From an uncultured Chloroflexia bacterium (GTDB lineage Bacteria > Chloroflexota > Anaerolineae > Anaerolineales > Anaerolineaceae): a DNA stretch of 64,000 nt. Under the pieces are notes generated by a model. It was not told the DNA's origin. It saw only the letters and a list, made by a program, of their open reading frames with translations, and searched no databases. Position 1 is the stretch's first letter. Every line of letters starts with the position of its first letter. The DNA lies in assembly GCA_963752685.1 (NCBI GenBank), contig CAVVZR010000008.1, positions 1,931,825 through 1,995,824 of the forward strand. Direction: 5' to 3'. Made by a program: the position numbers and the translations under genes. This document shows positions 40,002 through 64,000 of this stretch, in pieces.

Positions 40002-41177
40002 ATGACCAGGATCATTAGAAAGTATCTTTGGTTATTCCTCATATTCGGTCTGGTGAGTTGTAGAGTTCTGCCCCTGGCGCCGAACCCAACGAAGCAACCA
40101 CTTGTCCCCACCAATCAGCCGCCCGCTACCACCAAATCATCAATATCTTCTGCCAGCCCCACCCCTGTATCGACCGTTTCGCAGGTCGCAATTCCAACGC
40201 GGGATATTTCTGCCTTACCCGCATTCGAAAATTTAGCTGATGGCTGGAATGAATTGTATCCAGGCGGAGAAACCGCTTGCGCGCGTGGTGGTACCTACAG
40301 CTTTTCGGTGCGCAAAACAAACAGTTCTAAACTATTGGTTTATTTTGAGGGCGGAGGCAGTTGTTATGACGCAAACACCTGCCGTGTTGGGGGCAATTAT
40401 TTTGACAATTCCATCAATTCGTCATTTGAGGCCGACAATCCCGCCTTAAAATCCCACGGTTTATTTGCTTTAGACAACCCACGCAACCCATTTAGCGATT
40501 ACAACATCGTCTTCATCAACTATTGCACCGGCGATGCCTACCTGGGGGATAAAAGTGTCACCTACCAGAATGGTTTGCGATCATTCGAGGTACAACATAA
40601 GGGATTTATCAATACTCAGACTGCATTCTCCTGGATTTATCAGAATATCCCATCCCCAAATTCGGTATATATGGTCGGCTGCAGCGCCGGGGTAGTGGGT
40701 TCTTTCTTCAACCTGCCATATTTCAAGCAGCATTATCTTCAAACACCCCTTACTATTGTTGGAGATTCGGGCGGCGGCTATCTAGACGGACCAGCTTCGT
40801 ATGCAACGAACATAGGTGCTACCGGTGTACTCCCCTCCTGGCTACCTCAGTACCAAAATTTAATTTCTGGTGATATTCTCCGCTCAAGGTTCATTTTTAC
40901 TATCCCTGCCCAGGCTTATCCCGATATACGTGTCGGATTGGTTAACTCCGAGAATGACGGCGTTCAAGCCGAGATCATCTCGAGGTTTAACTCTAAAATC
41001 ACCCTCAAACAAGTGCTGGAATCAAATTTGACCGACTTGCGTTCGGATGTTCCTGCAATAAATTCTTTTATCGGACCCGGAGACTACCACTGCATCACCA
41101 TGTCAGACCAATTTTATGATTATCAAGCAAACGGCGTCCAGCTTAGTGATTGGATGACCAACCTTGCCAGTCCATAA
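40002..41177 (+). CDS. Secreted lipoprotein esterase of the pectin-acetylesterase/Notum family (PF03283-like)
   Basis: Lipoprotein signal (LIFGLVSC). Family motifs YFEGGGSCYDANTCR (cf. LEGGGWC..C.R) and INYCTGDAYLGD (cf. YCDGxSFxGD), with a downstream GCSAG (GxSxG) nucleophile. Confidence 0.6.
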   Translation: MTRIIRKYLWLFLIFGLVSCRVLPLAPNPTKQPLVPTNQPPATTKSSISSASPTPVSTVSQVAIPTRDISALPAFENLADGWNELYPGGETACARGGTYSFSVRKTNSSKLLVYFEGGGSCYDANTCRVGGNYFDNSINSSFEADNPALKSHGLFALDNPRNPFSDYNIVFINYCTGDAYLGDKSVTYQNGLRSFEVQHKGFINTQTAFSWIYQNIPSPNSVYMVGCSAGVVGSFFNLPYFKQHYLQTPLTIVGDSGGGYLDGPASYATNIGATGVLPSWLPQYQNLISGDILRSRFIFTIPAQAYPDIRVGLVNSENDGVQAEIISRFNSKITLKQVLESNLTDLRSDVPAINSFIGPGDYHCITMSDQFYDYQANGVQLSDWMTNLASP

Positions 41178-41464
41178 CCCGGTCGTTCGCTTTAAGCTTC
41201 TTGTTGTTTAGACAATCGACAATAGACCGCAACGAAACTGATATATATTTTATAAACAGCGACACCCTGGAAAGGTGTATAAATGTAATGCAGGTAAATA
41301 CAGTCTCTTTTGATCCGAATAATCTTCTTTTTCAGTCAGGGAGATATTCACCAGCACGTTACCAGTCGAATGGAGAGCAATGCTTCAGTAAACAGATATC
41401 AACCATCAAGGGTATTCCCTTTCAATTGGTACCGTGTACACAAGCTGCTCATGAGGGCTCATCC

Positions 41465-41555
41465 ATGCCCTGCAGGTTGTTGAATGTCCTCCTCTAGCCA
41501 AGCTAGTGCCCGACAAACCTGTCGACTTCTGTGCAGTAATCCCTGCAGGGCATGA
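41465..41555. promoter_or_regulatory. 13-bp perfect inverted repeat pair CATGCCCTGCAGG ... CCTGCAGGGCATG separated by 65 bp, in the 600-bp spacer upstream of the thioesterase gene
   Basis: Seen in sequence. Function unknown. Confidence 0.3.
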
Positions 41556-41772: not shown

Positions 41773-42564
41773 ATGATCATTACGAAACCAACTAGCAACG
41801 AAAAACCAACCTCCGACTGGTTGGTTTTTCCAAAACCGAACCAACACGCCACCTTCCGGTTGTTCTGTTTCCCTTATGCCGGCGCGGGATCGATGGTATA
41901 TCGCACATGGCCAGATGGTTTACCCCCTCAAGTCGAAGTCGTTTCAATATTGTATCCGGGTAGAGAAAGCCGCCTTCGGGTTACACCTTGTGTAACCATG
42001 CAAACCATGATCCTTGCCCTGGTAGAGGAAATCCTCCCGAAGCTAGATATGCCCTTCGCTTTTTATGGTCACAGCTTAGGCGGTTTGATAGCCTTTGAAC
42101 TCACCCGCGAGCTCCGCCGGCGGCAGTGGTCTCAGCCAACCCGTCTCTTCATTTCCAGCCGGAGAGCTCCCCAACTCCCGGACCCCAATCCACCAATATC
42201 CCACTTGAGTGGAGATGCATTTGCTCAGGCGATCCAAAAGCGCTACAATGGAATTCCCAAGATCATCCAGCAAGACCCCGATTTGATGGATATCTTTCTC
42301 CCTATTCTCCGAGCCGATTTCTCAATCTTTGAGACTTACCAGTATCTCCAAGAGCCGGTTTTAGATATCCCGATCTCTGCTTATTATGGCTTACAAGACC
42401 ATACAATCACTGCACAGGACGTCTCCGCCTGGCAGGATCAAACCCATCACCCGTTATCGTTGCAAGCATTTCCAGGCGATCATTTTTTCATCCAGGCTCA
42501 GCGCCTGGCGCTGCTCGAAACCTTATCGCAAGCATTGGAAAAACAGTTTGCAGGTGGAGGATAA
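41773..42564 (+). CDS. Type II thioesterase (alpha/beta hydrolase, editing TE of PKS/NRPS clusters)
   Basis: FRLFCFPYAGAGSMVYRTW N-terminus, GHSLGG nucleophile elbow (YGHSLGGLIAFELT), ~260 aa. Confidence 0.85.
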   Translation: MIITKPTSNEKPTSDWLVFPKPNQHATFRLFCFPYAGAGSMVYRTWPDGLPPQVEVVSILYPGRESRLRVTPCVTMQTMILALVEEILPKLDMPFAFYGHSLGGLIAFELTRELRRRQWSQPTRLFISSRRAPQLPDPNPPISHLSGDAFAQAIQKRYNGIPKIIQQDPDLMDIFLPILRADFSIFETYQYLQEPVLDIPISAYYGLQDHTITAQDVSAWQDQTHHPLSLQAFPGDHFFIQAQRLALLETLSQALEKQFAGGG

Positions 42565-42571: not shown

Positions 42572-43387
42572 ATGGCAGCCATCGTGAGGATACCAGGTGA
42601 AGCCTTGATACCCGGTGCAACTGAAATTCCGTTTGCCTCGAATGTAAGTGAGGTATTCTGGCACGCCTGGATACCCGCAAACCACCTGAGCATTGAACCT
42701 CACCAACTGCATATCTGGCGGGTCGATCTTCATCCATCACCCCAGGCTGCGGGTATCGAACGAGAAATGCTCTCGCCGGCGGAAACCGACCGGATGGAGA
42801 AATTTCAATTTGAACCGGACAGATACCGTTTCATAGTATCTCATTGCGCCCTGCGGATCATTTTGAGCCGTTATCTCGACATAGCGCCACAGCAGGTCCA
42901 ATACCAATACACGGATAAAGGTAAACCGTCACTGGTTCCTGCCACAGGATTATTTTTTAACCTGGCCCACTCTGGGGAACTCGCGCTGGTAGCCGTTGGT
43001 CTGCATTCTCAAATCGGTGTGGATGTGGAGTTCATTCGCATGGTCGATGACCTTGACCAACTCGCCAAATCCTGTTTTTCCCAATCGGAATTTCAGGCAT
43101 TTCAGCAAACGCCAGCCGCACTCAAGCAGCGAGTCTTTTTCAACGGTTGGACCCGTAAAGAAGCGTATATCAAAGCAGTCGGCGATGGGCTCTCAATTCC
43201 GCTGGATCAATTCGATGTTTCCATGCTGCCCGAAGAATCCCCAATGCTTCTATCCATTGCCAGCCATCCCGACGAGGTAAATCAATGGAGCATGCAGGAC
43301 ATTCCTGTGGGTGATGATTACGCCGCGTGCATTGCAATAAAAACACGCCCGGTCAATGTTTTTTATCTGTCCTTTTTCGAATATTGA
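42572..43387 (+). CDS. Sfp-type 4'-phosphopantetheinyl transferase
   Basis: GGAGGA RBS before ATG 42572. PPTase motifs GVDVEFI and WTRKEAYIKAVG (W/F-x-x-KEA). Confidence 0.8.
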   Translation: MAAIVRIPGEALIPGATEIPFASNVSEVFWHAWIPANHLSIEPHQLHIWRVDLHPSPQAAGIEREMLSPAETDRMEKFQFEPDRYRFIVSHCALRIILSRYLDIAPQQVQYQYTDKGKPSLVPATGLFFNLAHSGELALVAVGLHSQIGVDVEFIRMVDDLDQLAKSCFSQSEFQAFQQTPAALKQRVFFNGWTRKEAYIKAVGDGLSIPLDQFDVSMLPEESPMLLSIASHPDEVNQWSMQDIPVGDDYAACIAIKTRPVNVFYLSFFEY

Positions 43388-46300
43388 AACAACCATGTCA
43401 GATATAAATCCCCCCATCCCAAGTTTATCTCAACCGCCCGATCCTACGGAACCGATCGCCATCGTAGGCATTGGATGTAGGTTCCCGGGCGGTGTGAATT
43501 CACCAGAATCCTTCTGGGATCTATTGAAGAACGAAGTGGATGCGATAACCGAGATCCCGGCCAGCCGCATGAACATCAAAGCCTTGTATGATCCAAGGCC
43601 TGCAACCCCCGGGCGGATTATGACCCATTGGGGTGGATTTCTGGATGAAATCGACCAGTTTGATGCCTCCTTCTTTGGTATGTCGCCGCGCGAGGCAGAT
43701 CGCTTAGATCCACAGCAGCGCCTGATCCTTGAAGTTGCCTGGGAAGCCATGGAAGATGCCGGGGAGCCGATCGGGACGCCAACATGTCTCAATGGTGGGG
43801 TTTTCATTGGTTGCTGGTTAAATGATTTCGAGGGAAGGTTATTTAACGATCCGGACCTAATTGATTTCTACATGACCACCGGCAGCGGTCGTTATTCCAT
43901 CGTTGGCAGGCTTTCCTATTTCCTGGGTATGCAAGGGCCAAGCATCAACGTAGATACGGCTTGTTCCTCCTCCCTGGTAGCCATCCATCTGGCATGCCAG
44001 AGCCTCCACAATCGAGAATGCTCATTAGCCTTAGCCGGCGGCACCAACGTAATTTTGCAGCCCAGTATTTCCATCGCCTATTCGCAATCCCGCATGATGG
44101 CGCCTGACGGACGATGTAAATTCGGCGATGCACATGGCGATGGTTATGTAAGGAGCGAGGGCGCAGCGTTGGTTGTGCTCAAACGTCTCTCAGATGCAAT
44201 CGCCGATAAAAACCCAATTTATGCAGTGATTCGTGGTAGTGCGGTCAATAATGATGGGCGCAGCAGCGGGTTTTTAACCACGCCTGGAGGCGCAGGGCAG
44301 GAGGATATGCTTCGTAAAGCTTATCAGAATGCAAATGTATCCCCAGGCATGGTCCAGTATATCGAAGCTCACGGTACTGGCACACGGGCAGGCGACCCGG
44401 TAGAAATCCAGGCATTGGGTGCGGTATTAAAACAGGACCGCCCCATGGGCCAATTTTGTAAAGTTGGCTCGGTGAAGACAAATATTGGGCATACAGAAGG
44501 CGCTGCGGGTGTAGCTGGCTTGATAAAAGTGGTATTGAGCATGAAAAACCACTATATCCCAGCCAGTTTACATTTCCAGGAACCCAATCCCGCAATCCCT
44601 TGGGATGATCTTCCGGTTCGAATCCAATCCAAAGGTGAAGCCTGGCCCGACCATGACGGACCTGCCCTTGCAGGGGTCAGCGCCTTCGGCATCGCGGGGA
44701 CCAACGCGCATATCGTCCTCCAGGAAGCTCCGATCCTCAACTCAACTTCCGACCAGAATTTTACTAGACCGATATCCGACACTCAATCCAGCGATGATCG
44801 CATGTATGTTCTGCCGATTTCTGCTCGCAGCCCGTCTGCGCTCCACGATGTTGTCCAAAGGATGAAAAACTTTATCGAAAATGGTGACGACCATTCTCTT
44901 AACGACCTCGCCTATACCACTGGCACAAGGCGCACCCATAACGATTATCGAACTTCGTTTATTGCCCAAACCATTCAAAATCTTGATGAGCAGCTCTCTC
45001 TCTTTTTAGAAGACTGGCAAGCAGAAGGTTTTCCCCTGGCAGAACCAACGAACCGCAAGATATTGTTTGTTTTCCCTGGACAGGGTTCGCAGTGGGCCGG
45101 GATGGGGCTTCAATTGATGGAAAGAGAGCCGGTCTTCCGAGCGGTTCTCGAACGCTGCAGTCAGGCTATCGAACCATTAACCGGCTGGTCGCTCATCGAA
45201 ATTTTACGCTCTTCGCAAGTCAAAGAGCGGTTGGAACACATCGACATTATTCAACCCGCGTTATTTGCCATGCAAGTAGCTCTTGCCGAACAATGGCGCG
45301 CCTGGGGGATTGAACCTGCTGCAGTTGCTGGACATAGCATGGGCGAGATTGCCGCCGCCTACATTGCAGGCGCCATTTCCCTGGAGGATGCCGCCAGGGT
45401 TATCTGCAAGCGCAGCCAATTAATGAGAACGGTCAGCGGCAAGGGAGCCATGATTTCGGTCGACCTTTCGTTTGACGATTCGCGAGCTGCGATCCAAGGA
45501 TACGAAGATAAAATCTCAATCGCAGTGAGTAACAGCCCCCGGTCCACTGTTTTATCAGGGGATCCTGATGCTATTGATGAAGTCTCTGCCAACCTAAAAA
45601 ATAAAAACATACTATTCCGCCAGGTGAAGGTAGATGTGGCCGCACACAGTCCACAGATGGAAGCGCTGCGGCCTTTGCTCGAAAAGTCCCTGGATGGTCT
45701 GCAAACCCAACCCACCGCTATACCGATTTTTTCAACCGTATCAGCTAAGCTAGAAGATGGCGCGAGTTTTGATATTGCATATTGGGGGCGCAACCTCCGC
45801 CAACCGGTTTTGTTCTCTTCAGTGCTGAAACTGGCTTTAGATCAAGGCTTTGATACGGTTATCGAAATTAGCCCACACCCGGTTCTTCTTTCCGCTATTG
45901 AGCAAGGATTTGGTATTTTTAAGCCCGACAGCGAAGTGCGATTTGCTGCACTCCCATCCGCCCGGCGTAATGAAAACGAACAGGTTGTGCTGCTACAGTC
46001 CCTCGGTAAGCTTTTTGAGCTTGGGCACCCCATCCAGTGGTCCCGCATTTATCCACAGGAAGGGAATTTCGTAAAACTGCCATCCTATCCATGGCAGCGT
46101 GAACATTTCTGGCTCAAGGAAGCTGAAATCGACGCCGGCGCCGTTTCCCACACCTCCTCCGGATTACTTGGCACACATTTCGAAACATCCAGCCAACCAG
46201 ACACCCACTTTTGGCAGACCATTCTATCCCTTGAGACAGTTCCGTATCTGAAAGATCACCGGGTAGGTGAGACCATTCTGATGCCGGCAGCAGCCTTTGT

Positions 46301-47024
46301 GGAACTGGCGTTGGAAGCGGCTGCAGCCCTCGAAAAGCCCCTGGTGGTTAAGGACTTTGAGCTTCGCGAAGCACGCTCACTTCAGGAAGGCATGTCGTAC
46401 ATCCTACAATTTGTGATGTATTCAGATCACAACTTTGAAATTATCAGTCGTCAGGATGGAATGAGCGAATGGACTCGCCATGCTACCGGTAACTTGAGTG
46501 CCGAAGAAGATCTGACGAAGCCTGCCGACCGGATTGGGTCTGACAACCTGCTTTTCACGGCGGAAAACCACACTGGCGCTGACCACGTCAATGCTATGCG
46601 TCGCCGCGATTTGGACTACGGGCCTTCCTTCCAGGCAGTTGATTCCTACCGCCACATCGACAATCAGGTTGTTGGGCTAATACATTTGCCCGACAACCTG
46701 ACAATGGGAGAGCATATCATCCACCCAACAGTTTTGGATGCTTGCTATCAACTGCTGGTTGGGTCCCTAGACGCTTCCTCCGCGGCCGGCGACGCATTCT
46801 TGCCAATCAAAATAAACAGCTTGAAGGTATTTGCTCGCCCACGCAGCGACTCTGCCCTGACTGCTCACGTGACTCGACGATCGTTCGCCTCGGATGATCT
46901 GTTGATTGGAGACATCCGTCTGGAAAACGAGAATGGTGACCTGATCCTTTTCACCAATGGGCTGGAATTACAGCGTTTCCACAACAACAATAAACACGCT
47001 GACGATTTGTTCTACGCGATTTAA
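43356..47024 (+). CDS. Type I PKS module 1, first part: KS-AT-DH (probable start Met 43395). Terminated by a single in-frame TAA at 47022
   Basis: KS motifs [59 protein letters not shown] motifs GHSMGEIAAAYIAG and VDVAAHSPQM. DH motif LKDHRVGETILMPAAAF (HxxxGxxxxP). Confidence 0.85.
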   Translation: MFFICPFSNIETTMSDINPPIPSLSQPPDPTEPIAIVGIGCRFPGGVNSPESFWDLLKNEVDAITEIPASRMNIKALYDPRPATPGRIMTHWGGFLDEIDQFDASFFGMSPREADRLDPQQRLILEVAWEAMEDAGEPIGTPTCLNGGVFIGCWLNDFEGRLFNDPDLIDFYMTTGSGRYSIVGRLSYFLGMQGPSINVDTACSSSLVAIHLACQSLHNRECSLALAGGTNVILQPSISIAYSQSRMMAPDGRCKFGDAHGDGYVRSEGAALVVLKRLSDAIADKNPIYAVIRGSAVNNDGRSSGFLTTPGGAGQEDMLRKAYQNANVSPGMVQYIEAHGTGTRAGDPVEIQALGAVLKQDRPMGQFCKVGSVKTNIGHTEGAAGVAGLIKVVLSMKNHYIPASLHFQEPNPAIPWDDLPVRIQSKGEAWPDHDGPALAGVSAFGIAGTNAHIVLQEAPILNSTSDQNFTRPISDTQSSDDRMYVLPISARSPSALHDVVQRMKNFIENGDDHSLNDLAYTTGTRRTHNDYRTSFIAQTIQNLDEQLSLFLEDWQAEGFPLAEPTNRKILFVFPGQGSQWAGMGLQLMEREPVFRAVLERCSQAIEPLTGWSLIEILRSSQVKERLEHIDIIQPALFAMQVALAEQWRAWGIEPAAVAGHSMGEIAAAYIAGAISLEDAARVICKRSQLMRTVSGKGAMISVDLSFDDSRAAIQGYEDKISIAVSNSPRSTVLSGDPDAIDEVSANLKNKNILFRQVKVDVAAHSPQMEALRPLLEKSLDGLQTQPTAIPIFSTVSAKLEDGASFDIAYWGRNLRQPVLFSSVLKLALDQGFDTVIEISPHPVLLSAIEQGFGIFKPDSEVRFAALPSARRNENEQVVLLQSLGKLFELGHPIQWSRIYPQEGNFVKLPSYPWQREHFWLKEAEIDAGAVSHTSSGLLGTHFETSSQPDTHFWQTILSLETVPYLKDHRVGETILMPAAAFVELALEAAAALEKPLVVKDFELREARSLQEGMSYILQFVMYSDHNFEIISRQDGMSEWTRHATGNLSAEEDLTKPADRIGSDNLLFTAENHTGADHVNAMRRRDLDYGPSFQAVDSYRHIDNQVVGLIHLPDNLTMGEHIIHPTVLDACYQLLVGSLDASSAAGDAFLPIKINSLKVFARPRSDSALTAHVTRRSFASDDLLIGDIRLENENGDLILFTNGLELQRFHNNNKHADDLFYAI

Positions 47025-48437
47025 TGGGAAGCTGCTCCCGAATTAATTCCTTCTTCTTCAATGGAAGGTCATTGGCTGATCGCAAGTGATCAGGAACATG
47101 CCGCAGGTCAGCTTCGCGCAAGCCTGGAGACCCAGCAAGCGGTTTGCCGTATCCCGGCAAACGCATTTGATGGCAGTAAGATTGATCAGATCAACGCAAA
47201 AACCCAACATTTGGATTTGAGCGAACCATTAAGAGGCGTCATCTTCCTTGCCGTAGAATCCGCCGATCCACCGCCTATGGCTGCGGATCAACAATCGCTG
47301 AGACTTCTGGAACTGGTTCAAAAATTAGCCCAAGTAGATTGGAAAGAACCACCCCGGCTGTGGATTGTCACCCTGGGTGCTCAAGCTGTACTCCCAGGAG
47401 AGGCTTGTTCACCAGCATTGACCTCATTGTGGGGGCAAGCTGCCACAATTGCTCATGAATTCCCGGAATGGCAAACCTCACGAATCGATCTCGATTCGCT
47501 TGAGGCAATCCCACTCCTTTGGCAAGAACTGGCAGCCAGGCAAACCGATTCCGTCGCATTGCGAGGTGGGAAGCGTTTTATCCCTCGCCTTGTTCACCCA
47601 AATCTGCTCCAGGATGGTCTATCAAGCACAACACTGGCTGCTCCGGCCGGGGATCGCCCTTTCCAGGTAGAGGTCCCCCACCCCGGTTTATTAGACTCGC
47701 TTGAGCTCCGCGCTTGTTCGGCGCCTCAACCGGCGCCCGGCCAGGTTATCATTGATGTACATTCATCCGGGATGAACTTTATCGACGTGATGAAAGCCAT
47801 GGGCATTTATCCGGGCGCCAATCCCCTCGAGCCGGTCGCGCTGGGTCTGGAATGCTCCGGGACCATCCTGGCGATAGGCGACAATCCCAATCCATCAACG
47901 CATCAATTTGCTGTTGGGCAGGAAGTGCTCGCCTTTGCACCCCACACTTTTAGTAAATTGGTTACCGCTGACATTGATCTTGTAGCTCCTATACCGCCAT
48001 CTCTGAGTTTCGATCAGGCTGCCACAGTTCCGGTGGTATACCTGACTGCTTACTACGCCTTAATCCACCTGGGACGCATGCACCGCGGCGAACGAGTGCT
48101 CATCCATTCTGCAGCCGGTGGGGTGGGGTTGGCTGCTGTACAACTGGCACAGCATGTTGGCGCCGAAATTTTTGCGACTGCCGGCAGTGACGAAAAACGC
48201 GCCTATCTGCGCTCCTTGGGTATCCAACATATCATGGACTCGCGTTCGCTCGATTTCGCCGATCAAATCATGGCCAGCACAAATGGCCGAGGCGTAGATC
48301 TGGTATTGAATTCATTAACCGGCGAAGCCCTTACCAAAGGTCTCGAAATTTTAGCGCCATACGGACGCTTCCTCGAAATAGGCAAACGGGACATTTACCA
48401 GAATACCCGCATCGGGTTGCTCCCATTCCAGAATTAA
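47025..48437 (+). CDS. PKS module 1, enoyl reductase (MDR-type ER) domain; same reading frame as the KS-AT-DH part
   Basis: The WEAAPE linker follows the TAA directly in frame. NADPH motif [20 protein letters not shown]. The domain's C-terminus continues in another frame after ~48430. Confidence 0.8.
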   Translation, partial: WEAAPELIPSSSMEGHWLIASDQEHAAGQLRASLETQQAVCRIPANAFDGSKIDQINAKTQHLDLSEPLRGVIFLAVESADPPPMAADQQSLRLLELVQKLAQVDWKEPPRLWIVTLGAQAVLPGEACSPALTSLWGQAATIAHEFPEWQTSRIDLDSLEAIPLLWQELAARQTDSVALRGGKRFIPRLVHPNLLQDGLSSTTLAAPAGDRPFQVEVPHPGLLDSLELRACSAPQPAPGQVIIDVHSSGMNFIDVMKAMGIYPGANPLEPVALGLECSGTILAIGDNPNPSTHQFAVGQEVLAFAPHTFSKLVTADIDLVAPIPPSLSFDQAATVPVVYLTAYYALIHLGRMHRGERVLIHSAAGGVGLAAVQLAQHVGAEIFATAGSDEKRAYLRSLGIQHIMDSRSLDFADQIMASTNGRGVDLVLNSLTGEALTKGLEILAPYGRFLEIGKRDIYQNTRIGLLPFQN

Positions 48438-49644
48438 CCTGTCCTATTTTGCCATCGATCTCGACCGAATTGCCCGCGAACGCCCCGAATTTCTAGGCGA
48501 GATGTTGGCAGAAGTCATGGCCCTGCTTGAAAAAGGTGAAATTTCGCCATTACCCATTACCGCATATCCGGTCATCCAGACTAATGATGCCATGCACCAT
48601 ATGTCAGAGCCGGACCATATTGGTAAGGTTGTGCTCAACATGACTGATCCGAATGTGCCGGTGCTGCCTTCATCCCAGGAGACAGCCATGATCAAATCTG
48701 ATGCCACATACCTGATCACAGGCGGGCTCGGTGGGTTGGGACTGGCGGTTGCCAGCCAGCTGGCAGATCTGGGTGCGCGCCATTTGGCTCTGGTAAGCCG
48801 CAGCGGCGAAGAACGATTATCCCCGGAAGCCAAAACCTCCCTGGAAGGCTTGCGGGGTAAAGGCGTAAATCTCGCTATTTTGGCTGCAGATATCGCCGAT
48901 ACGGATCAAACCAGGGAGGTGCTTGCTCACATCCGCGAACACCTGCCCGCTCTGCGGGGGATCATCCATGCGGCTGGGGTGCTCGATGATGGCACCCTAT
49001 CCCAATTAACCCCCGAACGCATGCGAAATGTTTTTGCGCCCAAAATAGCCGGCGCATGGAACCTTCACTCGCTCACCGAGGACTTGACGCTCGACTTTTT
49101 TGTACTCTTCTCCTCAGTCACCTCACCTTTCGGCTCGCCGGGCCAGGGCAATTATGCTGCCGCTAACGCATTCATGGATGGCCTTGCTCATTATCGCCAA
49201 TTCTTGGGTCTTCCGGCACTCAGCATCGATTGGGGGCCGTGGAGCCAAATCGGACTGGCTGCCCAGCGACTCTCAAGGCGGTTTACTAGGTTTGGGCGGA
49301 TTTATACCGATACCCCCGAGGAAGGTCTGGACATATTCATCCGCTTGTTGGAGATTTCAGCGTCGCAAATCATTGCTACAGGCTTCAACGCGGGAGAATG
49401 GATCCAATCTCACCCGGCCGCATCCCGCTCGACCCTGTTTTACAATTTTGAAGACAGTGCTCCCGGCGCCGAAAGCACATCGACCGAGTCTGTCCGTGCC
49501 AACCTGCTGGCGGCCCTTCCGGGACGGCCAAGACACACCATATTGGAAACTTACGTTAAAGAACAGGTCGCACAAGTCCTTCGCCTGCCTCCGCTCGCGT
49601 CGATTTGCACAAACCGCTGCGCACCCTGGGATTGGACTCGCTGA
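48430..49644 (+). CDS. PKS module 1, ER C-terminus plus ketoreductase (KR); offset from the ER by one frameshift
   Basis: NLSYFAIDLDRIARERPEFLGEMLAEV completes the ER. KR Rossmann motif TYLITGGLGGLGLAVA, LDD motif HAAGVLDDG and catalytic SSVTSPFGSPGQGNYAAAN. Confidence 0.8.
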   Translation, partial: RINLSYFAIDLDRIARERPEFLGEMLAEVMALLEKGEISPLPITAYPVIQTNDAMHHMSEPDHIGKVVLNMTDPNVPVLPSSQETAMIKSDATYLITGGLGGLGLAVASQLADLGARHLALVSRSGEERLSPEAKTSLEGLRGKGVNLAILAADIADTDQTREVLAHIREHLPALRGIIHAAGVLDDGTLSQLTPERMRNVFAPKIAGAWNLHSLTEDLTLDFFVLFSSVTSPFGSPGQGNYAAANAFMDGLAHYRQFLGLPALSIDWGPWSQIGLAAQRLSRRFTRFGRIYTDTPEEGLDIFIRLLEISASQIIATGFNAGEWIQSHPAASRSTLFYNFEDSAPGAESTSTESVRANLLAALPGRPRHTILETYVKEQVAQVLRLPPLASICTNRCAPWDWTR

Positions 49645-49922: not shown

Positions 49923-50065
49923 AGGCCAATTCTTGTTGGAATCCCCTCTGGCTTTGCAGCCTATAATGAAACTAGGCATGCCTCCAACAGGTAAATCTCT
50001 CAACATCGAGCAATTGTTTGGTTGGTTTCATCCCTGCTGTTCGATGACCCAGGAATAAGGTAACT

Positions 50066-53000: not shown

Positions 53001-54750
53001 GAATTCTGTTTGTGTCTACAAGGGAAACGGATACGACCAAGAATCATCTGATCGTTTTCGCGTGGACCCACACAAGCCTGAGCATTTCAAAAAGTTGCTG
53101 GGGCAGTGTGTGGCAATTCTCCGGCCTTGCAGGGAGTTGCTTATTCGTGGGGCCTGCAGGCACCCAAAGCCGACCAAATCGATCTGCAACATTAAGAAGC
53201 CCAATCTGTTTTACTGAGGGGGGCGCTCCATCTGGTTCAGTCCCTGGCGGAAACCAATGGCAGCCAGGCGGTAACCCGCGCCTATGGTTAATCACCAGGC
53301 AGGCCCAGCCCGTTGCAGGCGACCGCCCCCTGGCTTGGCGCAGTCCACCTTGTGGGGCCTGGGGCGAGTGGTCGCCTTTGAACATCCCGATTTATGGGGC
53401 GGCCTGATTGATGTCGACGACATGCCCCCGATAAACTCCTCGCCGATCTCAGTGGGGAACCCGATCAGCAAATCGGGTTCCGCCGGGGAAGGCGCTATGG
53501 GCTCATCTGTTGCGCCAGACCATCTCCTCCCTCGACCTCCACCTGACCTTACTGCCCGATGCCAGCTATCTGGTAACCGGGGGGCTGGGCGGCCTGGGGT
53601 TAAAAGTGGCCAATTGGTTGGCAAGCCACGGCGCCAAACACATCGCCCTGATGGGGCGCAGCAGCGGCTCAGAGGCCGCACGCCAGGCGGTTCAGGCGCT
53701 GAGATCCGCGGCGTCCAGGTGCCATGGTCCAGGGAGATGCCAGTCAACCGGAGGATCTCCACCGAATTCTGGCTGAAATTTCGCAGGCAATGCCTCCGCT
53801 GCATGGCGTGATCCATGCCGCCGGCGTTGTGGAAGACGCACTTTTGGTGCGCCAAAATTGGGCCGGCTATGAACAGGTATTCGCCTCAAAAGTAGCCGGT
53901 GCCTGGAACCTGCACGAACTCACCCAGGAGTTGCCGCTTGATTTCTTCGTGCTGTTTTCTTCGGCGGCATCGCTCCTAGGCACACCCGGTCAGGCAAACT
54001 ATGCCGCCGCCAACGCTTTTATGGATGCGCTGTCCTTTGAACGCCATGCTGCCGGCCTGCCAGCCCTGTTGATCAATTGGGGCGCATGGGATGAAGTGGG
54101 GATGGCCGCCGGCAGGACAGCAAGCCGCCTGGCCCGTTTGGGCATTGAAAGTTTCTCACCGGAAAAGGGGCTGGCTGGCTTGGGACGGCTGATCCACCAG
54201 CGGCGCCGCAGCCCTTGTGCCTCGATGAAATGGGAGAAATTCACGTCCAAGGCCCGGGCGGCTACACCTGCTTCTTTCTTCTCCGGCTTGACGCGGAACG
54301 ATGCACCGGCAAAACCTCCGCCTGATCAACGAGGAGAACTCAAAGCATCCTCCAGCTGCTCGAATCTGCCCATCCCGCGCGCGCGCAGATTTGCTGGGCA
54401 GCCATATCCATAAAATCGTGGTCAAGGTACTTTCCTATGACAGCAGCCAGACATTGGCTCACGACCAGGGTTTCTTCCAACTCGGGATGGATTTCGTTAA
54501 TGGCATGGACCTTAAAGAAAGCCTTGCAAAAGAGCCTGGCCGGCTCTTTACGCACTACCTTGGCGTTTGATTTCCCCAGTATCAACCTGCTCACCCAGAT
54601 ATTTCTAACCGAATTGTTCCCCCAGCAGACACGTCGCCGAAGAATCGCCGCCCCCCCCTTCGATCACGACGAAGCATTGGACGAACTACCCACGAGGAAT
54701 TGAAATCGATGCTCGATATTGAAATGCGAAGTTTGGAAAACGACCTATAA
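50066..54750 (+). pseudogene. Type I PKS module 2 (N-docking-KS-AT-psiKR/KR-ACP-C-docking), fragmented by at least 10 frameshifts. This is either a genuine pseudogene or a low-quality sequence region
   Basis: Domains are readable only by hopping frames. [23 protein letters not shown]...[45 protein letters not shown] and GHSMGEVVAAYVSG are present. There is no DH between the AT and psiKR (LAQSTLWGLGRVVAFEHPDLWGGLIDVDD). KR motifs YLVTGGLGGLGLKVA and FFVLFSSAASLLGTPGQANYAAAN. ACP remnant, and the docking tail [18 protein letters not shown]. Confidence 0.7.
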
Positions 54751-54755
54751 AACTT

Positions 54756-57700
54756 ATGCCTGATAAAACCACACCCACAAACGACCTAGACCAATTGAAA
54801 CGTGCTTTGAGCGCGTTGAAAAAAGCGCACGCTCGCATCACCGCCCTTGAGCAAGCGCGTTCAGAACCGATTGCCATTGTTGGAATGGGCTGCCGCCTGC
54901 CAGGTAAAGCCAACTCGCCGCAGCATTCTGGCAGCTGCTGCGCGAGGGCCGCAGCGGAATGACCCAGGCGCCTGCAGAGCGTTGGGATACAACTGCTTTT
55001 CAGGCATCCTCCCCAGATGAGCCGGGCAAAATGCAGTCATCTTTGGGTGGTTTTATCAACAACGTCGACCAGTTCGACCCCCATTTTTTTGGCATTTCGC
55101 CCCGCGAAGCCAATGCAATGGATCCCCAGCAGCGCCTGACGCTCGAAGTGGTCTGGGAAGCGCTCGAAGATGCCGGTATTGTCCCTGCCGGCCTGGCCGG
55201 CAGCTCCACCGGTGTTTTTATTGGGATCGGGATCAATGATTATGGTCGCTTGCAGATCCCCGCGCAGGCTGGCTGACCCCAGCATGATCGACAATTACTT
55301 CCTCCAGGGAAATGCCTTTTGCATTACCCCCAATCGCGTCTCCTACGCGCTCGACCTTCAAGGCCCCAGCATGGCGATCGACACCGCCTGTTCAGCATCC
55401 CTGGTCGCCATTCATACTGCCTGTGCAAGCCTTCACAACGGGGATAGCTCTCTGGCCCTTGTCGGCGGCTCGAACGTGATGCTCGCTCCCGATAAATCGA
55501 TCGGTCTGGGAAAATTTTTCGCACCAGATGGCCATTGCAAAGCCTTCGATTCTCGAGCCAATGGTTATACCCGTGGCGAAGGCTGCATTATCTTGGTACT
55601 GAAAAGGCTGTCCGATGCCGATCACGTCCCATGACCGCATTTATGCGCTGATCCGGGGCAGCGCCATAAACCAAGATGGCTTCAGCAGCGGTTTGACCGT
55701 ACCCAACGGGGTAGCCCAGGAAGCCATGCTGGGCACAGCCCTAAAAAATGCCGGTCTCGCAGCCAGGCGATATGGATTATATCGAAGCTCATGGTACCGG
55801 CACTTCTCTGGGCGACCCAATTGAAGCCAATGCCCTGGGGCAGTTTTTGCCAGCGGGCATAAAGCCGGCGCAGGAACTGCTCATTGGTTCGGTAAAAACC
55901 AATATTGGTCATCTGGAAGCCGGGCAGGCATCGCGGGCTTGTTCAAGATTGTCCTGGCCCTGTACCACCGGGAAATTCCACCCAGTTTAAATTATATTGA
56001 ACCCAATCCCATGATTGACTTTGCTACCCTGCGCCTAAGGTGGTCACCCAATTAACGCCCTGGCCGCAGAGCGACCACCGCCCCGCGCAGGGGTCAGTTC
56101 CTTTGGATTTGGCGGGGCCAATGCACATGTGATTGTTGAAGCCTTTCCCGATGAACTGTACCTCCGCGTCAACCATGCCCTGCAACGGACCGCAAGCCAT
56201 CTACTCACCCTATCGGCCAAGACCCCCAAGCTCTCACCCAATCCGCCCAAAATTTGGCAACCTTCTTGCGCGCCAACCCTGGGCTTGCCCCGGAGGATGT
56301 TTGTTACACCGCCAACCGGCGCCGTTCGCATTTCACTCACCGTCTGGCGTCGTCTCCCTGACCGGCCCGGATTTGCCAAATCTGGACGCATTCGCGGATG
56401 GCAAACCCGCTCCAATGGATCAGCGCTCAGGTTCAGCGCGCCAAGCAAAGTCGCTTTTTTATTCACCGGTCAGGGCTCGCAATATGTAGGCATGGGTACC
56501 CCGCTTTTCAGACACAGCCCGTTTTCCGTGCCATTATGGATCGCTGCGCCGCCATCTTTCAGCAGGAGACGGGCGAATCGCTGTTCGCGATTCTCTATCC
56601 GGCTGAAACCACTCTGCACCCTCCAGGGTACGAGGAACATTAAAAATCAACCATACTACTTACACCCAACCAGCGCTTTTTGCCATCGAATATGCCCTGG
56701 CTGAGCTATGGCGCTCCTGGGGGGTTGAACCCGCGTGGTGATGGGGCATAGCATTGGTGAATATGTGGCAGCATGTGTTGCCGGGGTCATGAGCCTGGAA
56801 GATGGCATGAATCTGGTTACGGCCCGCGGCCGGCTGATGGGCGCGCTGCCCGAGGGGGGGTGATGGCAGCTGTCTTCGCCCCTCTAGAACGCGTCCAGCA
56901 AGAACTAGCGGCCCTTGGTTTCGATCGCGGCCATCAATGGCCCTGATAGTATCGTCATCTCCGGTGCTCCGCTGCCGTGCAAGAAATATTGGACCGGTTC
57001 AACGAGCAGGGCGTCCAAACCCGTAAATTGGTCGTCTCTCACGCCTTCCATTCCCCGCTCATGGATCCAATACTGGATGAATTTGAGCAGGTGGCGGCCA
57101 CCTGCCCGTTTCACCCCCCAGAATTCCTCTGATCTCCAATATCACCGGTCGTCCATTTGCATCGGGCGAAATTCCCGATGCGGCTTACTGGCGCACACGT
57201 CCGCTCAGCAGTCAATTTTGCCGCCGGAATGGGCTGCACTGCATGACTTCGGGATTTCTACATCCTGGAGACAGCCTCACCCGGCCCTGATAGCCTCGGG
57301 AAGCGCTGTATTCCGGATGAGCGTGATGATCCTACCGGAGGGTGTAAAAACCTGTGGCTGCCTTCTCTGCGTCAAGCGCAAATCGATGACCTGCAAATGC
57401 AAAAAAGCCTGGCAGCTTTCTACTGCCTTGGTCAGGAAATAGATTGGGCCGCGGTAGAGAGTCAGCGCCCGGGCAAACTCACCACCTTGCCCACCTATCC
57501 CTTCCAGCACGAGCGGTTCTGGTTCCAGACCTCTACTGAGGGGCGTTCACCAAAATCTTCCCGCAGCCACTCCGCTCCCTCCGAACGGCCGCTTCTCGGC
57601 AGCCGCCTGCGCTCTCCCCTGATCAAAGACATTGTCTTTGAGACGCACATCGATGCCCAATCGCTCGGTTATTTGTGGGACCACCGCGCTTTTGGCACGG

Positions 57701-60700
57701 GCATTTTCCCGGCCAGCGCTTTCGCCGAAATGGGCCTGTCTGCCGCAAGTATTTTGGATCCAGACCTGCGCTATGTGTTGGAGGATCTGACCATCCAGGA
57801 TTCATTGATCCTGCCGGATGAAGGTGATGTCACCTTACAAATCGTCATCGCCCCGGAAGCAGACGGCCAGAAGACCCTGAAGTTTTTCAGCGCCTCCACC
57901 ACATCCTTGAAAGAGGAGAATAACGGTTGGACGCTTCATGCCTATGCGAAGCTCAGGCCGTCCACCGGTCAACCACCAGATGCCTTCAGCCTCTTCCAGG
58001 CCCAAAGCGCCTGCCCGAACCCAATCAACCCACAGGAATATTATCAATTCCTCAATCAAATGGGAATGGAATATGGTCCGGCTTTCCAAAATATACATAT
58101 GCTCTGGCGAGGCGATTTACAAGCACTTGCTCATGTGCAGCTCCCAGGTGAAACCCCTACAGCCGGATACGTCATCCATCCTGCGCTGCTGGACGCGTGC
58201 ATTCAGACGATCGGCGCGACCCTACCCGACACGCTCGAGGTTTTCCTCCCCCTGGCATTCGAGCAAATCGAGTTGATTGCCGATCCCGGCTCCGATGTGT
58301 GGAGTCATGTGCGCATCTATCCTGGTGAGAATCCCAAATCATTTAATTGTGACATGACCCTTTTTGGCGTCGACGGGCAAGAAGTGGGTCGCATCACCGG
58401 TCTGCGTATGAAGCGCGCCACACGATTGTCTATCCAGCGCCTGGTCCGACGCAGCCCCGGCCACTCATTGTTCGCCGATTGGCTGTACCGGATGGAATGG
58501 CACAAGCAAGCGATCCAACCTGACCCGACACCCGGTGCTCTCCCGACCCGCTGGTTGATCCTGGCGGAAGATGATTACTACGCAGGTCTGGCTTCATTGA
58601 TTCCTGGCGCGCTGATCGCATCTCCCGCAGACGCCATTCGCCAGACCACTGCAGACCGGTGGGACTACAATCCCGCACGACCTGAAGATTTTTCATCCCT
58701 GATCCAGGCCACCCAACCCGAGGGAGTTGTTTGCCTTACGGGCGATCTTCAAACGGCTTTGCATCTGCTTCAGGCAGTTCTGTTCCTTGGGCTCGACCTC
58801 GCCCCAGGTCTGGCTCGCCACCTCCGGCCCGCCTCGTGCCCAGCCCGTTCTGGGCGGGGAATCCGGCGCGGACAACCTCAGTCGTTTCCCAGGCAGGATG
58901 TCCACGGGCCTGGCGCGTTCTGACTCGCCAGGAGTACCCTGACCTCCACTTGCATCCTGGTCGATCTTGATCCGGCTTCTTTACCCTGCCGTTGCACAAT
59001 GTACAGCAACCTTCTGCACTTAAATCCAGAGTTCAGGACAGCGAAACAACGAGGTAGCCTACCGCAACGATATGCGTTACGTGTCGCTGCTGGAGGTGGT
59101 ACTTGCTTTTTGCATGCCACTAAATTTAGGAGCTTCTCCGGTTAGAGATCACCGAGCGCGGCACCATCGATGGTTTTATTCCTGAAGCCCCATGCAGCGC
59201 GATCCGCTGTCTGCCGGCGAGGTTGAGATTGATGTTCGTGCAACCGGCTCAACTTCCCCTATGTGCTCAATACCCTCGATATGTATCCGGGCGATGCCTG
59301 CTTGTTGGGGCAGAGTCCAGCGGAATTGTCACTGCGGTTGCTGGTGCTGACACCCATTTTTACCCGGGTGACCCTGTGTTGGGACTGGCAACGCGAGTTT
59401 TGCCTCCTTTGCAGTGGCCCGGCCGAATTTGTCGTCCGTAAACCTGTAAATGAGCTTCGAACAGGCGGCCACCATCCCAATCGCATTTCTAACCGCCGAA
59501 TATGCCTTCAACACCCTAGGAAAGATCGAGCCTGGCGAAAGAGTGTTAATTCATGCCGCGGCCGGCGAGTCGGCCTGGCGGCGGTCCAACTAGCAAAATT
59601 AGCAGGGGCGAAAATTTATGTTACCGCCTGCTCGCCCGAAAAACGCGCCCTGTTACAAACTATGGGCGTGAAGATGTATGGATTCCCGTTCGTTAGCATC
59701 TGCGATGAAATCCTGCTCGAAACTGGCGGCGGGGAGTGCACATAGTGCCCGATTCCCTGGCGGATGACTTCATCCCCGCCAGTTTCGACGTTCTCCGCCC
59801 GTGCGGGCGATTCCTGGAAATCGGCAAACGCGGGATCTGGACTTATGCGCAGGTGGCAGCGCTCGGGAAAAATATCGCTTATCACATCATTTATTTGGGC
59901 GAGGTGACCGAGCAGGATTTACAGCTTATAGGCGGCCTGTTCGGGGGCTTCATCGCTCAATTTAAAAATGCGGCCCTTCATCCGCTCCCTATCGCGTTTT
60001 TCCATTCTACCCAGGCAGCAGATGCCTTCCGGTATATGGCCCAGGCGCGTCACGTCGGCAAGCTTGTTCTCACTCAGCCGCCATCTCCACCCCGCCTCCC
60101 CCGCAGATCCTACCTGATGCCATCTGATCTCTGGTGGCCTTGGTGGCATTGGCCTGACTGTCGCCGGGCAGTTGGTTGAAATCCGGAGCCCGCCCTGATT
60201 CTTGTGGAGCCGCCGTCCCCCTTCCGCCGGGGCCCAAGCCGTTATCGCATAGATCCAGGCGAATACATCAGAACCGGTCGACGATCACCCCGCATCAAGC
60301 GGACATGAAGGATAATGCCCAGGTTCAAAGCCTGTTGATCTGATTGAAAAAGACATTACCCCCCCGCCGGGATCATCCATTGCCGCCGGTGTGCTACATT
60401 GATGGGGTATTCCCCCACCAAAATTGGTCACGCTTCCCAGGTGCTCGCCCCCCAACCTTAACGCGGCCCTCCACCTGCACTGCCTGACGGCACATTTTTC
60501 CCTGGATTTCTTTGTGATGTTTTCCGCGGGGCTGGCTGGTCTGGCACTGCAGGACAAAGTGGCTATGCCGCAGCCAATACCGCGGTAGATGCCCTGGTCT
60601 GATTACCACGGGGCGCGGTTTACCGGCGGTCAGCATCGCCTGGGGGGACTGCCAGGTAGGCATGGCGGCCCGCATGAACAAAGCAAACCAGGGAACGCTT

Positions 60701-61342
60701 GAGCCGGCAGGGTTTCTGGCATGATCGCCCCGGAAGAAGGCGGGCAGATATTCGATAAGACCCTCAGAAAAGCACGGCGCGTTGGTGTACTCCCGATAGA
60801 CTGGCTGAATTTTGCGACGCGCACCCAATAGCCCCCGCGCTTCAGCGAACTCGGCGGGACCTCCGCGCAACCGCCAGCCTTCCTCCTTCCGCCAACCCTC
60901 CGGCACAAGATAATAATCGGGGGCTAACCAAAGCCCCCCTGAATAAACGTAAACCACTGCTGCAAGCCCATGTGAGCGAACAAGCCATGCGTGTTGGGGT
61001 AAGCGCCACCTATAAACTAGATTTCGCCCAGCCGCTGCGCGAAATTGGCATGGATTCCTAATGGCTGTCGAGTTGCGCAACGTCATCTCCGCCAGCTTTC
61101 AGCTCAAATTACCTTCCACCCTGCTATTCGATTACCCCACTATCGATGCGCTCACGTCTATCTGACAAGCGAGATTTGGCCAAGCCCTTCGCCACAGCCG
61201 TTGCGCAAAACCAAGAGAAATCAGCTCAAAATAAAACCGCTCGAACGCAGCCGAAATCCAAGACCTTTCCGACGATGAAGCCGAAGCAGCGCTCCTGGCC
61301 GAGTTGGAGAAACCAAAGCGCAAAGAAAAGGTGCCTGCATGA
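54756..61342 (+). pseudogene. Type I PKS module 3 (N-docking-KS-AT-DH-psiKR-ER-KR-ACP-C-docking), heavily frameshifted
   Basis: [52 protein letters not shown] motifs [34 protein letters not shown] motifs [30 protein letters not shown]: the 57397-58923 ORF with WDHRAFGTGIFPASAF. ER remnants GEVEIDVRATGLNFPYV and [27 protein letters not shown] remnant DFFVMFSAGLAG. ACP remnant LGMDS|LMAVELRN. Tail LSDDEAEAALLAELEKP. Confidence 0.7.
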
Positions 61343-64000
61343 CCTCCGATTCCTCCACCCCCGAACTATCCCCAATCAAACGCGCGTTGATTGAAATTCG
61401 CAATCTGCGTGCGCGGCTTGACCAATTGGAAGAGCCCAGAACGAACCAATCGCGATCATCGGCATGGGCCTGCGCTTTCCAGGCGATGCCAACGATGCCG
61501 ACAGCTTTTGGCAGATTGCTGCATGACGGTGTGGATGCGATCACCGAGGTTCCACCTGAAAGGTGGAGCCTGGAAGATTCTACGATGAGGATGTTTCCAT
61601 CCCGGGAAAAATGACCACGCGCTACGGCTCGTTTATTAAAGAATATCGACCAGTTCGATGCGGCATTTTTCGGTATTTCCCCCCGCGAAGCCATCAGCAT
61701 GGATCCGCAGCAGCGTCTGCTGCTCGAAACCAGCTGGGAAGCGCTAGAAAATGCCGGCCAATCCACCGAAAAACTGCTGGGAACCCAGACCGGTGTCTTT
61801 ATTGGCATTTCCAACAGCGACTACTTTCGCATGCTGATCAGCGACCCGCGAGAAGATCGACACCTATGCTGGCACCGGCGGCACATTGAGCGTCGCGGCC
61901 GGCAGGATATCCTATTTGCTCGGGCTGCAAGGCCCGGCAATGGCGGTGGACACAGCCTGTTCATCCTCGCTGGTCGCCCTTCATCTGGCCTGCCAGAGCC
62001 TGCGCCACAAGGAATGCAACCTGGCGCTGGTGGGCGGGGTGAACCTGATTTTGTCGCCCGAAATCAATATCAACTTCTCCAAAGCCGGGATGATGGCGCT
62101 TGACGGCCGCTGCAAGACCTTCGATGCCCAGGCCGATGGCTATGTGCGCGGCGAAGGCTGCGCCGTGGTGGTGATCAAGCGCCTGTCGGATGCCGTCGCC
62201 GACAGGGACAACATCCTGGCGGTGATCCGCGGATCGGCGATCAACCAGGACGGCCGCAGCAGTGGGTTGACCGCGCCCAACGGCCCATCTCAGGAAGCTG
62301 TCATTCGCGCCGCGCTGCGGTCTGCCCAGGTGTGAGCCGCAGCCAGGTGGGCTATGTCGAGGCGCACGGCACCGGCACCTCCCTCGGCGATCCGATCGAA
62401 GTGCGCGCGCTCGGCGCGGTATACGGATCGGGCCGCGATCCCGCCATCCTTTACAGGTCGGCTCGGTGAAAACCAACATCGGTCATCTGGAAGCCGCCGC
62501 CGGGATAGCGGGTGTGCTCAAGGTGGTATTGGCGTTGCAGCACGGAGAGATACCGCCTCATCTGCACTTTTCCACGCCCAACCCGCACATCGCCTGGAAC
62601 GAATATCCCGATCGAGGTGCCCATAAACTGCATGCCCTGGCAGCCTCTGGAAGGCCGCCGCCTGGCCGGGGTTAGTTCCTTTGGATTTAGCGGCACCAAT
62701 GCCCATATCATCCTCGAAGAGGCACCCGCGCCTGAAGCGCTAACTGAAATGCCGGATGCATCTGGGTCAAAGCCAACGGCCGATCTCAACGATACTGGTC
62801 GCGCTTTGTTGTTCTCCTTTTCAGCCCGGTCTGAAAGCGCCTTGCGAGATCTGGTCAAAAATTATCAAAACTATCTCTCCACCAGGTCGCTTTCTGCGCC
62901 GGAAATGCAAACTCTTGCCCACACCCTATCCGCCGGCAGGACGCATTACACCCAACGCCTGGCAGTCGTCGCATCCGGCTCTGCGCAACTGAACGAACAG
63001 TTGGCCGCCTACACCGCCAATCAAAAAACAGCCGCCTGGTGGAAAGGTAAACAGCCGGGCAACACCGCGCTTCCCGTCGTCTTTTTATTCACAGGTCATG
63101 GTTCGCATTACGTCAACATGGGGCGCGAGCTGTATGAAAGTGTGCCTATCTTCCGCCAGGTTATGGACCAATGCGATCAACTGCTGCGCGCCTACCTGCC
63201 TGTTCCCCTCTTATCCGTGCTCTATCCAACACTCACCGAAGCTGGCAGCGACCTCACCACGCAGGCCAACTTAAACGATATGACCTATGGCCAGCCGGCC
63301 ATGTTTGCCCTGGAATACGCCCTCGCCACCATGTGGCGCTCTTGGGGCATCGAGCCGGCCGCGTTGGCGGGTCACAGCCTGGGCGAATATGCGGCAGCCG
63401 CCTTTGCGGGTGTGCTCAGCCTGGAAGATGCCCTGCTGTTGATCGCGGAACGTGGGCGCTTGATGCAGCAGCTCCCCGAAGACGGTCTGATGGTCACGGT
63501 CTTCGCCGACGAAGAACGTGTGGTAGCCCAGGTGGAGCCCTACGCAGCCGAGGTTTCTATCGCGGCGATTAACAGCCCCGAAACCATTGTGATTTCCGGC
63601 CGGCGCGAATCCGTGCAAAAGGTGGTAGATCAGTTGACCGCCCAGGGAATTCGTACTCGCCCATTGAATATCTCCCGCGCGGCGCACTCCCCAATGGTCG
63701 AAGCCATGCTCCCCGGCATCGCCGAGACAACTGCCCACCTGCGTTTCGCTCCACCCCAAATCGAGTTCTTCTCAACCGTCACCGGTGAGGTGATCAGTGA
63801 GGGTCTCACCCAACCTACCTACTGGCAGCGCCATTTACGCCAGACGGTGCGCTTCGCCGATGCCGTGCAGGCCCTTTACTCTGCCGGATACCGTTGTTTC
63901 CTGGAGATAGGCCCTCATCCAACCCTGATCAACCTGGGGCAGCGCACCATCAGCGGGGTCGATCCGGTCCTTTGGCTGCCTTCCCTGCGCGAAAATCAGC
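61339..64000 (+). CDS. Type I PKS module 4, partial at window end. The KS carries several frameshifts; the KS-AT linker and AT read as one open frame from ~62668 to 64000
   Basis: [33 protein letters not shown]...[20 protein letters not shown] (frameshifted), [65 protein letters not shown]: [38 protein letters not shown]. Confidence 0.75.

Follow-up and report, generated by a model that had tools for sequence, protein, structure and literature searches.

A cis-AT polyketide synthase with one module per gene from an uncultured bacterium, its many frame breaks very probably consensus errors

In curacin-type cyanobacterial (CurG-CurM) and myxobacterial assembly lines, each module of a modular type I polyketide synthase (PKS) is a polypeptide of its own, with a docking head before the ketosynthase (KS) and an acidic docking tail after the acyl carrier protein (ACP). 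The PKS described here runs from 43.4 kb to the end of a 64,000-nucleotide stretch of contig CAVVZR010000008.1 (the window, by which we mean the whole stretch analysed); its architecture lies within these well-known types and the cluster itself is uncharacterised. Judged by its sequence, it is a genuine and conventional cis-AT modular type I PKS with one module per gene, from an uncultured bacterium that probably belongs to the Chloroflexota. As assembled, its reading frames are broken dozens of times, and these breaks are very probably uncorrected 1-2-base consensus errors of a long-read metagenome assembly and not the result of pseudogenisation; long-read (Nanopore/Flye-style) technology appears to underlie the source contig.

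The likeness to curacin extends to sequence, as the KS-acyltransferase (AT) structure of CurL (4mz0) is the second-best match in the PDB (E = 1.7e-222) and a CurL-like KS-AT linker (PF22621) was detected by Pfam, while homologues in JGI metagenomes are labelled 'myxalamid-type PKS MxaE and MxaD'. Unlike curacin, the locus has no GNAT loading module, HCS cassette, sulfotransferase or thioesterase (TE) release domain visible within the window, its docking elements match 4myz at only E = 0.58, and its host is probably a Chloroflexota bacterium. With 6-deoxyerythronolide B synthase (DEBS) it shares cis-AT modular logic and modules of the form KS-AT-(DH-ER)-KR-ACP, and the tail of its module 1 (M1) combined with the head of its module 2 (M2) gave a weak best PDB match to 1pzr (DEBS2/3, E = 0.036); DEBS, however, carries two modules per protein and methylmalonyl ATs (YASH), whereas here there is one module per protein with the AT motifs HAFH, VAAH and RAAH. 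M1 and module 3 (M3) have the KS-AT-DH-ER-KR-ACP order of mycocerosic acid synthase (MAS), structures of which (9d2z/9d2y) match M1 residues 19-1193 at E ~1e-217, and M1, similarly lacking a docking head, would have to be primed directly with an acyl group. Whereas MAS works iteratively and on its own, M1 bears a docking tail and has collinear modules after it. The frame breaks resemble the frameshift-fragmented genes of Nanopore metagenome-assembled genomes (MAGs), in which 1-2-base indels split conserved genes and strike unrelated genes as well, but differ from them in that their density is very local and not tied to homopolymers.

Domains were called with Pfam and by tblastn with the M1 domains as query, with M2, M3 and module 4 (M4) read on a frame-corrected translation. 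Pfam recovered KS, AT, dehydratase (DH), enoylreductase (ER, as ADH_zinc_N), ketoreductase (KR) and ACP (PP-binding) domains on the forward strand with E = 1e-94 to 1e-7, and tblastn placed four KS and four AT domains. The order after frame correction is KS-AT-DH-ER-KR-ACP in M1, KS-AT-KR-ACP in M2, KS-AT-DH-ER-KR-ACP in M3 and KS-AT onward in M4, giving a reductive pattern of full, KR-only, full and unknown, the last because M4 leaves the window after its AT. Every module has its own integrated AT (PF00698 at E = 1e-58 to 1e-94 in M1-M3, tblastn for M4), hence the AT-less modules served by a free-standing AT that characterise trans-AT systems are not found here. No loading module, release domain (TE or R) or nonribosomal peptide synthetase (NRPS) domain was found among the open reading frames (ORFs) scanned across 1-64 kb, a few short ones of which had no Pfam match at all, and an Rfam search of the whole window returned no match. 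An earlier interpretation made before any database search (the sequence-only reading) had proposed a cis-AT PKS from 43.4 kb to the window end, with these domains in this order, this reductive pattern, an AT in every module and no loading, TE/R or NRPS domain, and had named a domain search as a check; on all of these points it was borne out. The best named homologues of the PKS are from MAGs of Anaerolineae and other Chloroflexota. When GTDB genomes were scanned with the M4 fragment, no relative exceeded 52% identity, and the DH stretch, used as query against JGI metagenomes, yielded a single relative at 28%, hence no short-read copy against which to check the frame.

Each of the M1-M3 genes has its own ATG and stop codon, and M4 has its own ATG. 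The M1 gene (43356/43395..49922, forward strand, as are the other three) encodes KS-AT-DH-ER-KR-ACP and a docking tail (LSDAELAAMLDSELDKIDDLL), has no N-terminal docking coil, and ends with a TAA at 49920. M2 (50066..54750) begins with an ATG at 50066 after a ribosome-binding site (RBS), encodes docking head-KS-AT-KR-ACP-docking tail as read by Pfam on the corrected sequence, and stops with the TAA at 54748. Only five bases separate it from M3 (54756..61342; start at 54756), for which Pfam on the corrected sequence gives docking head-KS-AT(HAFH)-DH-ER-KR-ACP-docking tail. Where M3 ends and M4 begins, at 61339-61342, stop and start codon overlap as ATGA, which suggests that the two genes are translationally coupled, and the 5' part of M4 (61339..64000; docking head-KS-AT) continues past the window end. 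Elsewhere on the same 2,139,131-bp contig, outside the window, a 1071-aa PKS ORF (P0269) starts with a docking head, followed by KS and AT (HAFH), and stops halfway through its DH; the assembly line or a second cluster continues there and is also broken.

Two relatives served for comparison. L001 (ENA ERZ25039495 contig_32728, 922 kb) has the same gene order of GT4 glycosyltransferase, flippase, AsnB, PAE-like esterase, TE and PKS; it has unbroken genes for M2 (1568 aa) and M3 (2070 aa), and its M1 also carries an in-frame TAA. L042 (ERZ25039539 contig_59624, 13.9 kb) is 79% identical to the window at the nucleotide level and covers window positions 50743-63993. It has about 46 frameshifts and one stop of its own, at positions differing from those in the window, and its M3 KS is intact where that of the window has seven breaks. 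Many of the related loci come from 'MFD...contig_N' MAGs. The catalogue of these MAGs was built from Nanopore reads alone, by metaFlye assembly and a single round of Medaka polishing; its authors report checking lower-coverage MAGs for Nanopore-associated errors (PMC12313526).

Frame breaks were located with a frameshift-tolerant protein-to-DNA aligner written for this analysis, using the L001 orthologues and the frame-corrected L042 as references. The longest open stretch in the PKS is 1222 aa (43356-47024), beyond which the coding signal switches frame dozens of times. The first break is a single in-frame TAA at 47022-47024, a secure stop, and is followed by an indel-dense zone (48435..62607) that holds about 95 frameshifts (48 of -1, 29 of +1, 13 of -2 and 5 of +2) and coincides nearly with the interval covered by L042. 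The own start codons that the sequence-only reading gave to four modules are present, but the modules are not continuous ORFs as assembled, and that reading passed through these frameshifts and at least one stop without remark.

Aligned to its L001 orthologue, M1 is 69% identical with four frameshifts (~48435, 49270, 49313 and 49591) and one stop. The alignment of the intact 1568-aa L001 M2 (residues 1-1568) spans 50066-54747; it is 72% identical, crosses 27 frameshifts, leaves three residues unmatched and contains neither an in-frame stop nor a codon insertion. The KS-AT part of M3 aligns at 81% identity with 18 frameshifts and no stop; these two together give 45 orthologue-verified frameshifts and not one in-frame stop. 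Against frame-corrected L042, the whole of M3 is 80% identical with about 56 frameshifts and M4 has eight, the last at ~62607. At most five further in-frame stops are doubtful: four lie in the M3 KR (60196-60829), where both references are garbled, and the fifth, at 53193, appears with the L042 reference only. The zone is interrupted by two frameshift-free patches, 51583-52961 and 57263-58789, of 1.4-1.5 kb each, which at about 7 indels per kb have Poisson probabilities of ~1e-5 to 4e-5 each. The indels are not enriched at homopolymers, the mean longest run within 6 bases being 3.0 as against 2.8 at random sites. Frame breaks number about 7 per kb over 14 kb of PKS versus about 0.1 per kb upstream, or about 60-fold more than in the 43 kb upstream. 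Of the upstream GT4, flippase and AsnB genes, taken as non-PKS controls, two are each struck once relative to intact L001 orthologues, the flippase (35329-36800, reverse strand) by a -1 frameshift at 35924 and the AsnB-like amidotransferase (36852-38709, reverse strand) by a +1 frameshift at 38460.

The M1 stops of the window (47016-47024) and of L001 (13430-13438) are about 40 codons apart and both read G-ATT-TAA. Each of the two sites replaces two ordinary codons of the other genome (TTT-CAG and CTG-ACT), and GATTTAA occurs only twice on the forward strand of the window. This shared context could be a coincidence, a systematic base-calling artefact or something real.

Several independent lines point to error and not decay. 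First, they are almost purely indels. In bacterial mutation-accumulation data, substitutions outnumber indels by about 10:1 and about 4-5% of coding substitutions create a stop, so under neutral decay the 45 verified frameshifts would be expected to come with about 20 nonsense codons, where none is observed. Second, constraint is not relaxed and all catalytic motifs are kept. Against L001, dN/dS is 0.07 in M1, 0.16 in M2 and 0.15 in M3 KS-AT (overall range 0.07-0.17); pN in the frameshift-dense parts of M2 (0.161) is below that in its clean AT patch (0.213); pN/pS against L042 is 0.20-0.31 in dense parts and 0.19-0.25 in clean parts; and mismatches to L042 fall mainly at third codon positions (1648 versus 671 and 440). 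The mixture of nonsense and frameshift mutations, relaxed dN/dS and degraded motifs that mark a decaying pseudogene was not found. Third, the indels are of 1-2 bases in both directions and without homopolymer enrichment, unlike the natural spectrum of 1-bp indels, and they are patchy. Finally, the unrelated upstream genes also carry single-base frameshifts, L042 and P0269 show a like symptom, and related MAGs belong to the Nanopore-only catalogue described above. We therefore favour consensus error, with the errors spread across a stretch of poor coverage or strain mixture and the true genes presumably unbroken and kept so by purifying selection. A plausible local cause would be a strain-variable island covered by few reads, or two haplotypes piled up together, because L042 spans nearly the same interval as the indel-dense zone.

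Several points weigh against consensus error. The roughly 60-fold higher break density in the PKS requires such a local cause, be it mixed strains or a drop in coverage. The consensus errors of modern Nanopore data are as a rule said to favour homopolymers, and the present indels do not. Frameshift density and similarity to L042 are uncorrelated (Spearman -0.23, p = 0.2). Lastly, the TAA at 47022 is a substitution-type stop and M1 of L001 likewise has an in-frame TAA; at least module 1 could be genuinely interrupted.

The alternative that survives best is a specific sub-case of sequencing error, in which two co-occurring lineages with PKSs about 79% identical were merged on one assembly path, so that the indels are polishing artefacts, and in which a DH cassette was recently exchanged between the two. 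An exact match of 1277 bp joins window positions 57415..58691 (forward strand) to L042 6720-7996, comprising the M3 post-AT linker, the whole DH and ~85 residues beyond. Its edges are abrupt, its flanks are 72-76% identical to L042 with a pS of ~0.5, and the next longest exact run is 34 bp; it lies inside the second of the frameshift-free patches. The cassette was either exchanged between two lineages very recently or is the product of a chimeric consensus. A merged path with true recombination would account for the abrupt edges of this match and its place in a clean patch, as well as for the near coincidence of L042 with the indel-dense zone, and the divergence of the flanks, biased as it is to synonymous sites, is real. 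Yet identity to L042 does not track the frameshift count overall, and the window is not pieced together coarsely from L042-like segments, as the 34-bp run attests. We accordingly entertain this combination only tentatively, as a possibility that falls somewhat short of even.

Real pseudogenisation, in which the assembly line was inactivated in this lineage and is decaying so that the breaks are true mutations, seems to us improbable. It would fit the concentration of breaks in a dispensable secondary-metabolite cluster with most flanking genes intact, the in-frame TAA at 47022 and the broken state of L042 and P0269, and gene-conversion repair could be invoked for the clean DH patch identical to L042. 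Neutral decay, however, implies tens of in-frame stops together with a raised pN, whereas there are at most six stops overall, none of them among the verified frameshifts, and neither pN nor pN/pS is raised where frameshifts are dense. Natural 1-bp indels favour homopolymers and the present ones do not; decay that proceeds uniformly would not be expected to spare patches of 1.4-1.5 kb; and the catalytic motifs are all retained. Moreover, with a pS of ~0.5 between them, both lineages would have had to undergo a burst of indels alone, each independently and very recently. The scenario in which the breaks are real after all, through just such recent, independent, indel-only inactivation in two diverged co-occurring lineages with a DH cassette exchanged or repaired between them, or, more narrowly, with M1 deliberately split at G-ATT-TAA in both the window and L001, we regard as improbable too.

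Two further readings, short introns in a eukaryotic gene and a programmed recoding by frameshifting or stop read-through, can be set aside as next to impossible, even though short gaps separate some consecutive ORFs (e.g. 47024 to 47061 and 48437 to 48502) and both M1 stops share the G-ATT-TAA context, since about 95 recoding sites without a shared motif are implausible and the two TAAs stand at non-homologous positions. Introns and a eukaryotic origin were rejected because open stretches of different frames overlap, the first break is a single in-frame stop, and the orthologue aligns through every junction with shifts of 1-2 bases only, so that nothing is spliced out; the genes of the window are, besides, packed in the bacterial manner, with RBSs and stop codons that overlap start codons.

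On the corrected translation, all catalytic motifs survive in agreement with L001 and L042. The KS domains (M1 43449-44576, M2 50165-51294, M3 54864-55995, M4 61443-62570) all keep DTAC, HGTGT and N[IL]GH, the Cys-His-His triad that the sequence-only reading had assigned to each of them, although in M2 a frameshift disrupts the codon following the Cys. The four AT domains (M1 45066-46013, M2 51773-52696, M3 from ~56456, M4 63082-63999) all have GHS[MIL]GE. Of their specificity motifs, HAFHS in M3 is of malonyl type, whereas VAAHS in M1 and M2 and RAAHS in M4 do not allow a substrate to be assigned from the motif alone. The oxyanion-hole GQGSQ of the AT is replaced by YSGVGGHW in M2 (~51780-51815) and by FTGHGSHY in M4 (~63090-63125); because the GVGGH and GHGSH variants are conserved in L042, they are real and not sequencing errors. 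DH domains lie at 46146-47021 in M1 and 57592-58416 in M3, and ER domains at 47025-48434 and ~59450-59864, respectively. The KR domains (M1 within 48382-49641, M2 53504-54194, M3 ~59871-60673) have the LDD-like motifs LDD, VED and LID, which we take to be consistent with B-type KRs. PP-binding matches were obtained in M1 (49593-49919, E = 2.7e-11), M2 and M3, with the ACP motif G[LM]DSL read in M1 and M2; in M3 the Ser codon of the ACP is lost to a frameshift where L042 has GMDSL, and the ACP position of M4 is beyond the window end.

Coiled-coil heads are visible by eye at the N-termini of M2, M3 and M4, as are acidic helical tails at the C-termini of M1, M2 and M3 (that of M3 being LSDDEAEAALLAELEK), and heads, tails and catalytic motifs alike are conserved in L001 and L042. 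The sequence-only reading had given every module an N-terminal docking helix; this stands for M2-M4, as do the tails for M1-M3, but M1 has about 25-37 proline-rich residues without a coil before its KS, as has its L001 orthologue. A PDB sequence search gave no significant match from which a docking class could be assigned, its weak matches comprising class 1 (1pzr) and the solved curacin-type class 2 pair (4myz) at the E values given above and the CurL N-terminus (E = 0.1), and the Pfam erythronolide docking family had no match.

We propose that the order M1-M2-M3-M4 would be held by the acidic C-terminal tails and coiled-coil N-terminal heads, with a type II thioesterase (TEII) and an Sfp-type phosphopantetheinyl transferase (PPTase) serving the line. 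Because M1 has no docking head and stands first in the operon, it is probably the first extending module and would be primed directly by an acyl starter. M1 would then extend the chain by a C2 unit in fully reduced form, M2 by a beta-hydroxy unit and M3, with its malonyl-type HAFH AT, by a further saturated unit. The resulting chain would be largely saturated and hydroxylated, and the product and its release step would lie outside the window.

Upstream of M1 on the same strand are three genes in the places where the sequence-only reading had put an esterase, a TEII and a PPTase. The TEII, an editing enzyme (41773..42564; PF00975, E = 3e-39), has an intact frame against L001 and is also found beside PKSs in seven other loci (L006, L010, L022, L023, L031, L035 and L040). 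The Sfp-type 4'-phosphopantetheinyl transferase (42572..43387; PF01648 and PF22624, ACPS/AASDHPPT_N, E = 2e-18) probably starts at 42572, with an ATG that follows a GGAGG; the ORF as called mechanically begins at 42386. The pair of TEII and PPTase recurs beside PKSs in five of those loci (L006, L010, L022, L023 and L031). The PPTase, which in the window lies between TE and M1, is missing from that position in L001 (9835-10001). L001 also carries a transposase of the IS1595 family, about 6 kb upstream of its cluster, which has no counterpart in the window.

Membership of the third gene, the PAE/Notum-like esterase (40002..41177; PF03283, E = 5.6e-17), in the pathway is where the sequence-only reading probably erred. 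Its frame is intact and it is 53% identical to the syntenic L001 gene. The N-terminus (40002-40070; L001 7800-7870) has a lipoprotein signal peptide (..LIFGLVSC..) with a lipobox (LVSC; LVGC in L001), followed by a Pro/Thr-rich linker, and the protein is thus probably exported. The esterase adjoins a PKS only in L001 among 42 fetched loci. On account of its lipoprotein signal, its place in a conserved block with polysaccharide genes and its PKS neighbour in L001 only, it probably goes with those genes and is not a PKS pathway enzyme. The polysaccharide-type genes in question (33933..38709, mixed strands, identified with Pfam) are a GT4 (forward), the Wzx-like flippase (reverse) and the AsnB-like amidotransferase (reverse), and are syntenic with L001.

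Long bacterial ORFs are densely packed throughout the upstream 43 kb of the window. Two overlapping pairs of ORFs on its forward strand are probably single genes split by frameshifts, one (15127-18136) a 5TMR-LYT/PAS/HisKA/HATPase sensor kinase split at ~16.6 kb and the other (27688-30742) a large MalT-TPR/LuxR regulator split at ~29.5 kb. A 903-aa ORF at 12423-15134 contains PAS domains only, without an output domain.

The most notable property of the cluster in the window is very probably an assembly artefact, and it has consequences for those who work from the deposited sequence. Gene finders, antiSMASH-style tools and protein databases see the cluster as dozens of fragments, of which P0001, P0121 and P0269 are examples, and a reader risks taking the cluster to be intact or, conversely, a pseudogene, whereas frameshift-aware comparison with relatives recovers the likely true proteins. 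Once so corrected, the cluster is one more uncharacterised modular PKS of an uncultured, probably Chloroflexota, soil bacterium and of routine interest for genome mining. The DH cassette common to two lineages that are otherwise 21% diverged would, if confirmed, be a natural example of domain-level recombination in the evolution of PKSs.

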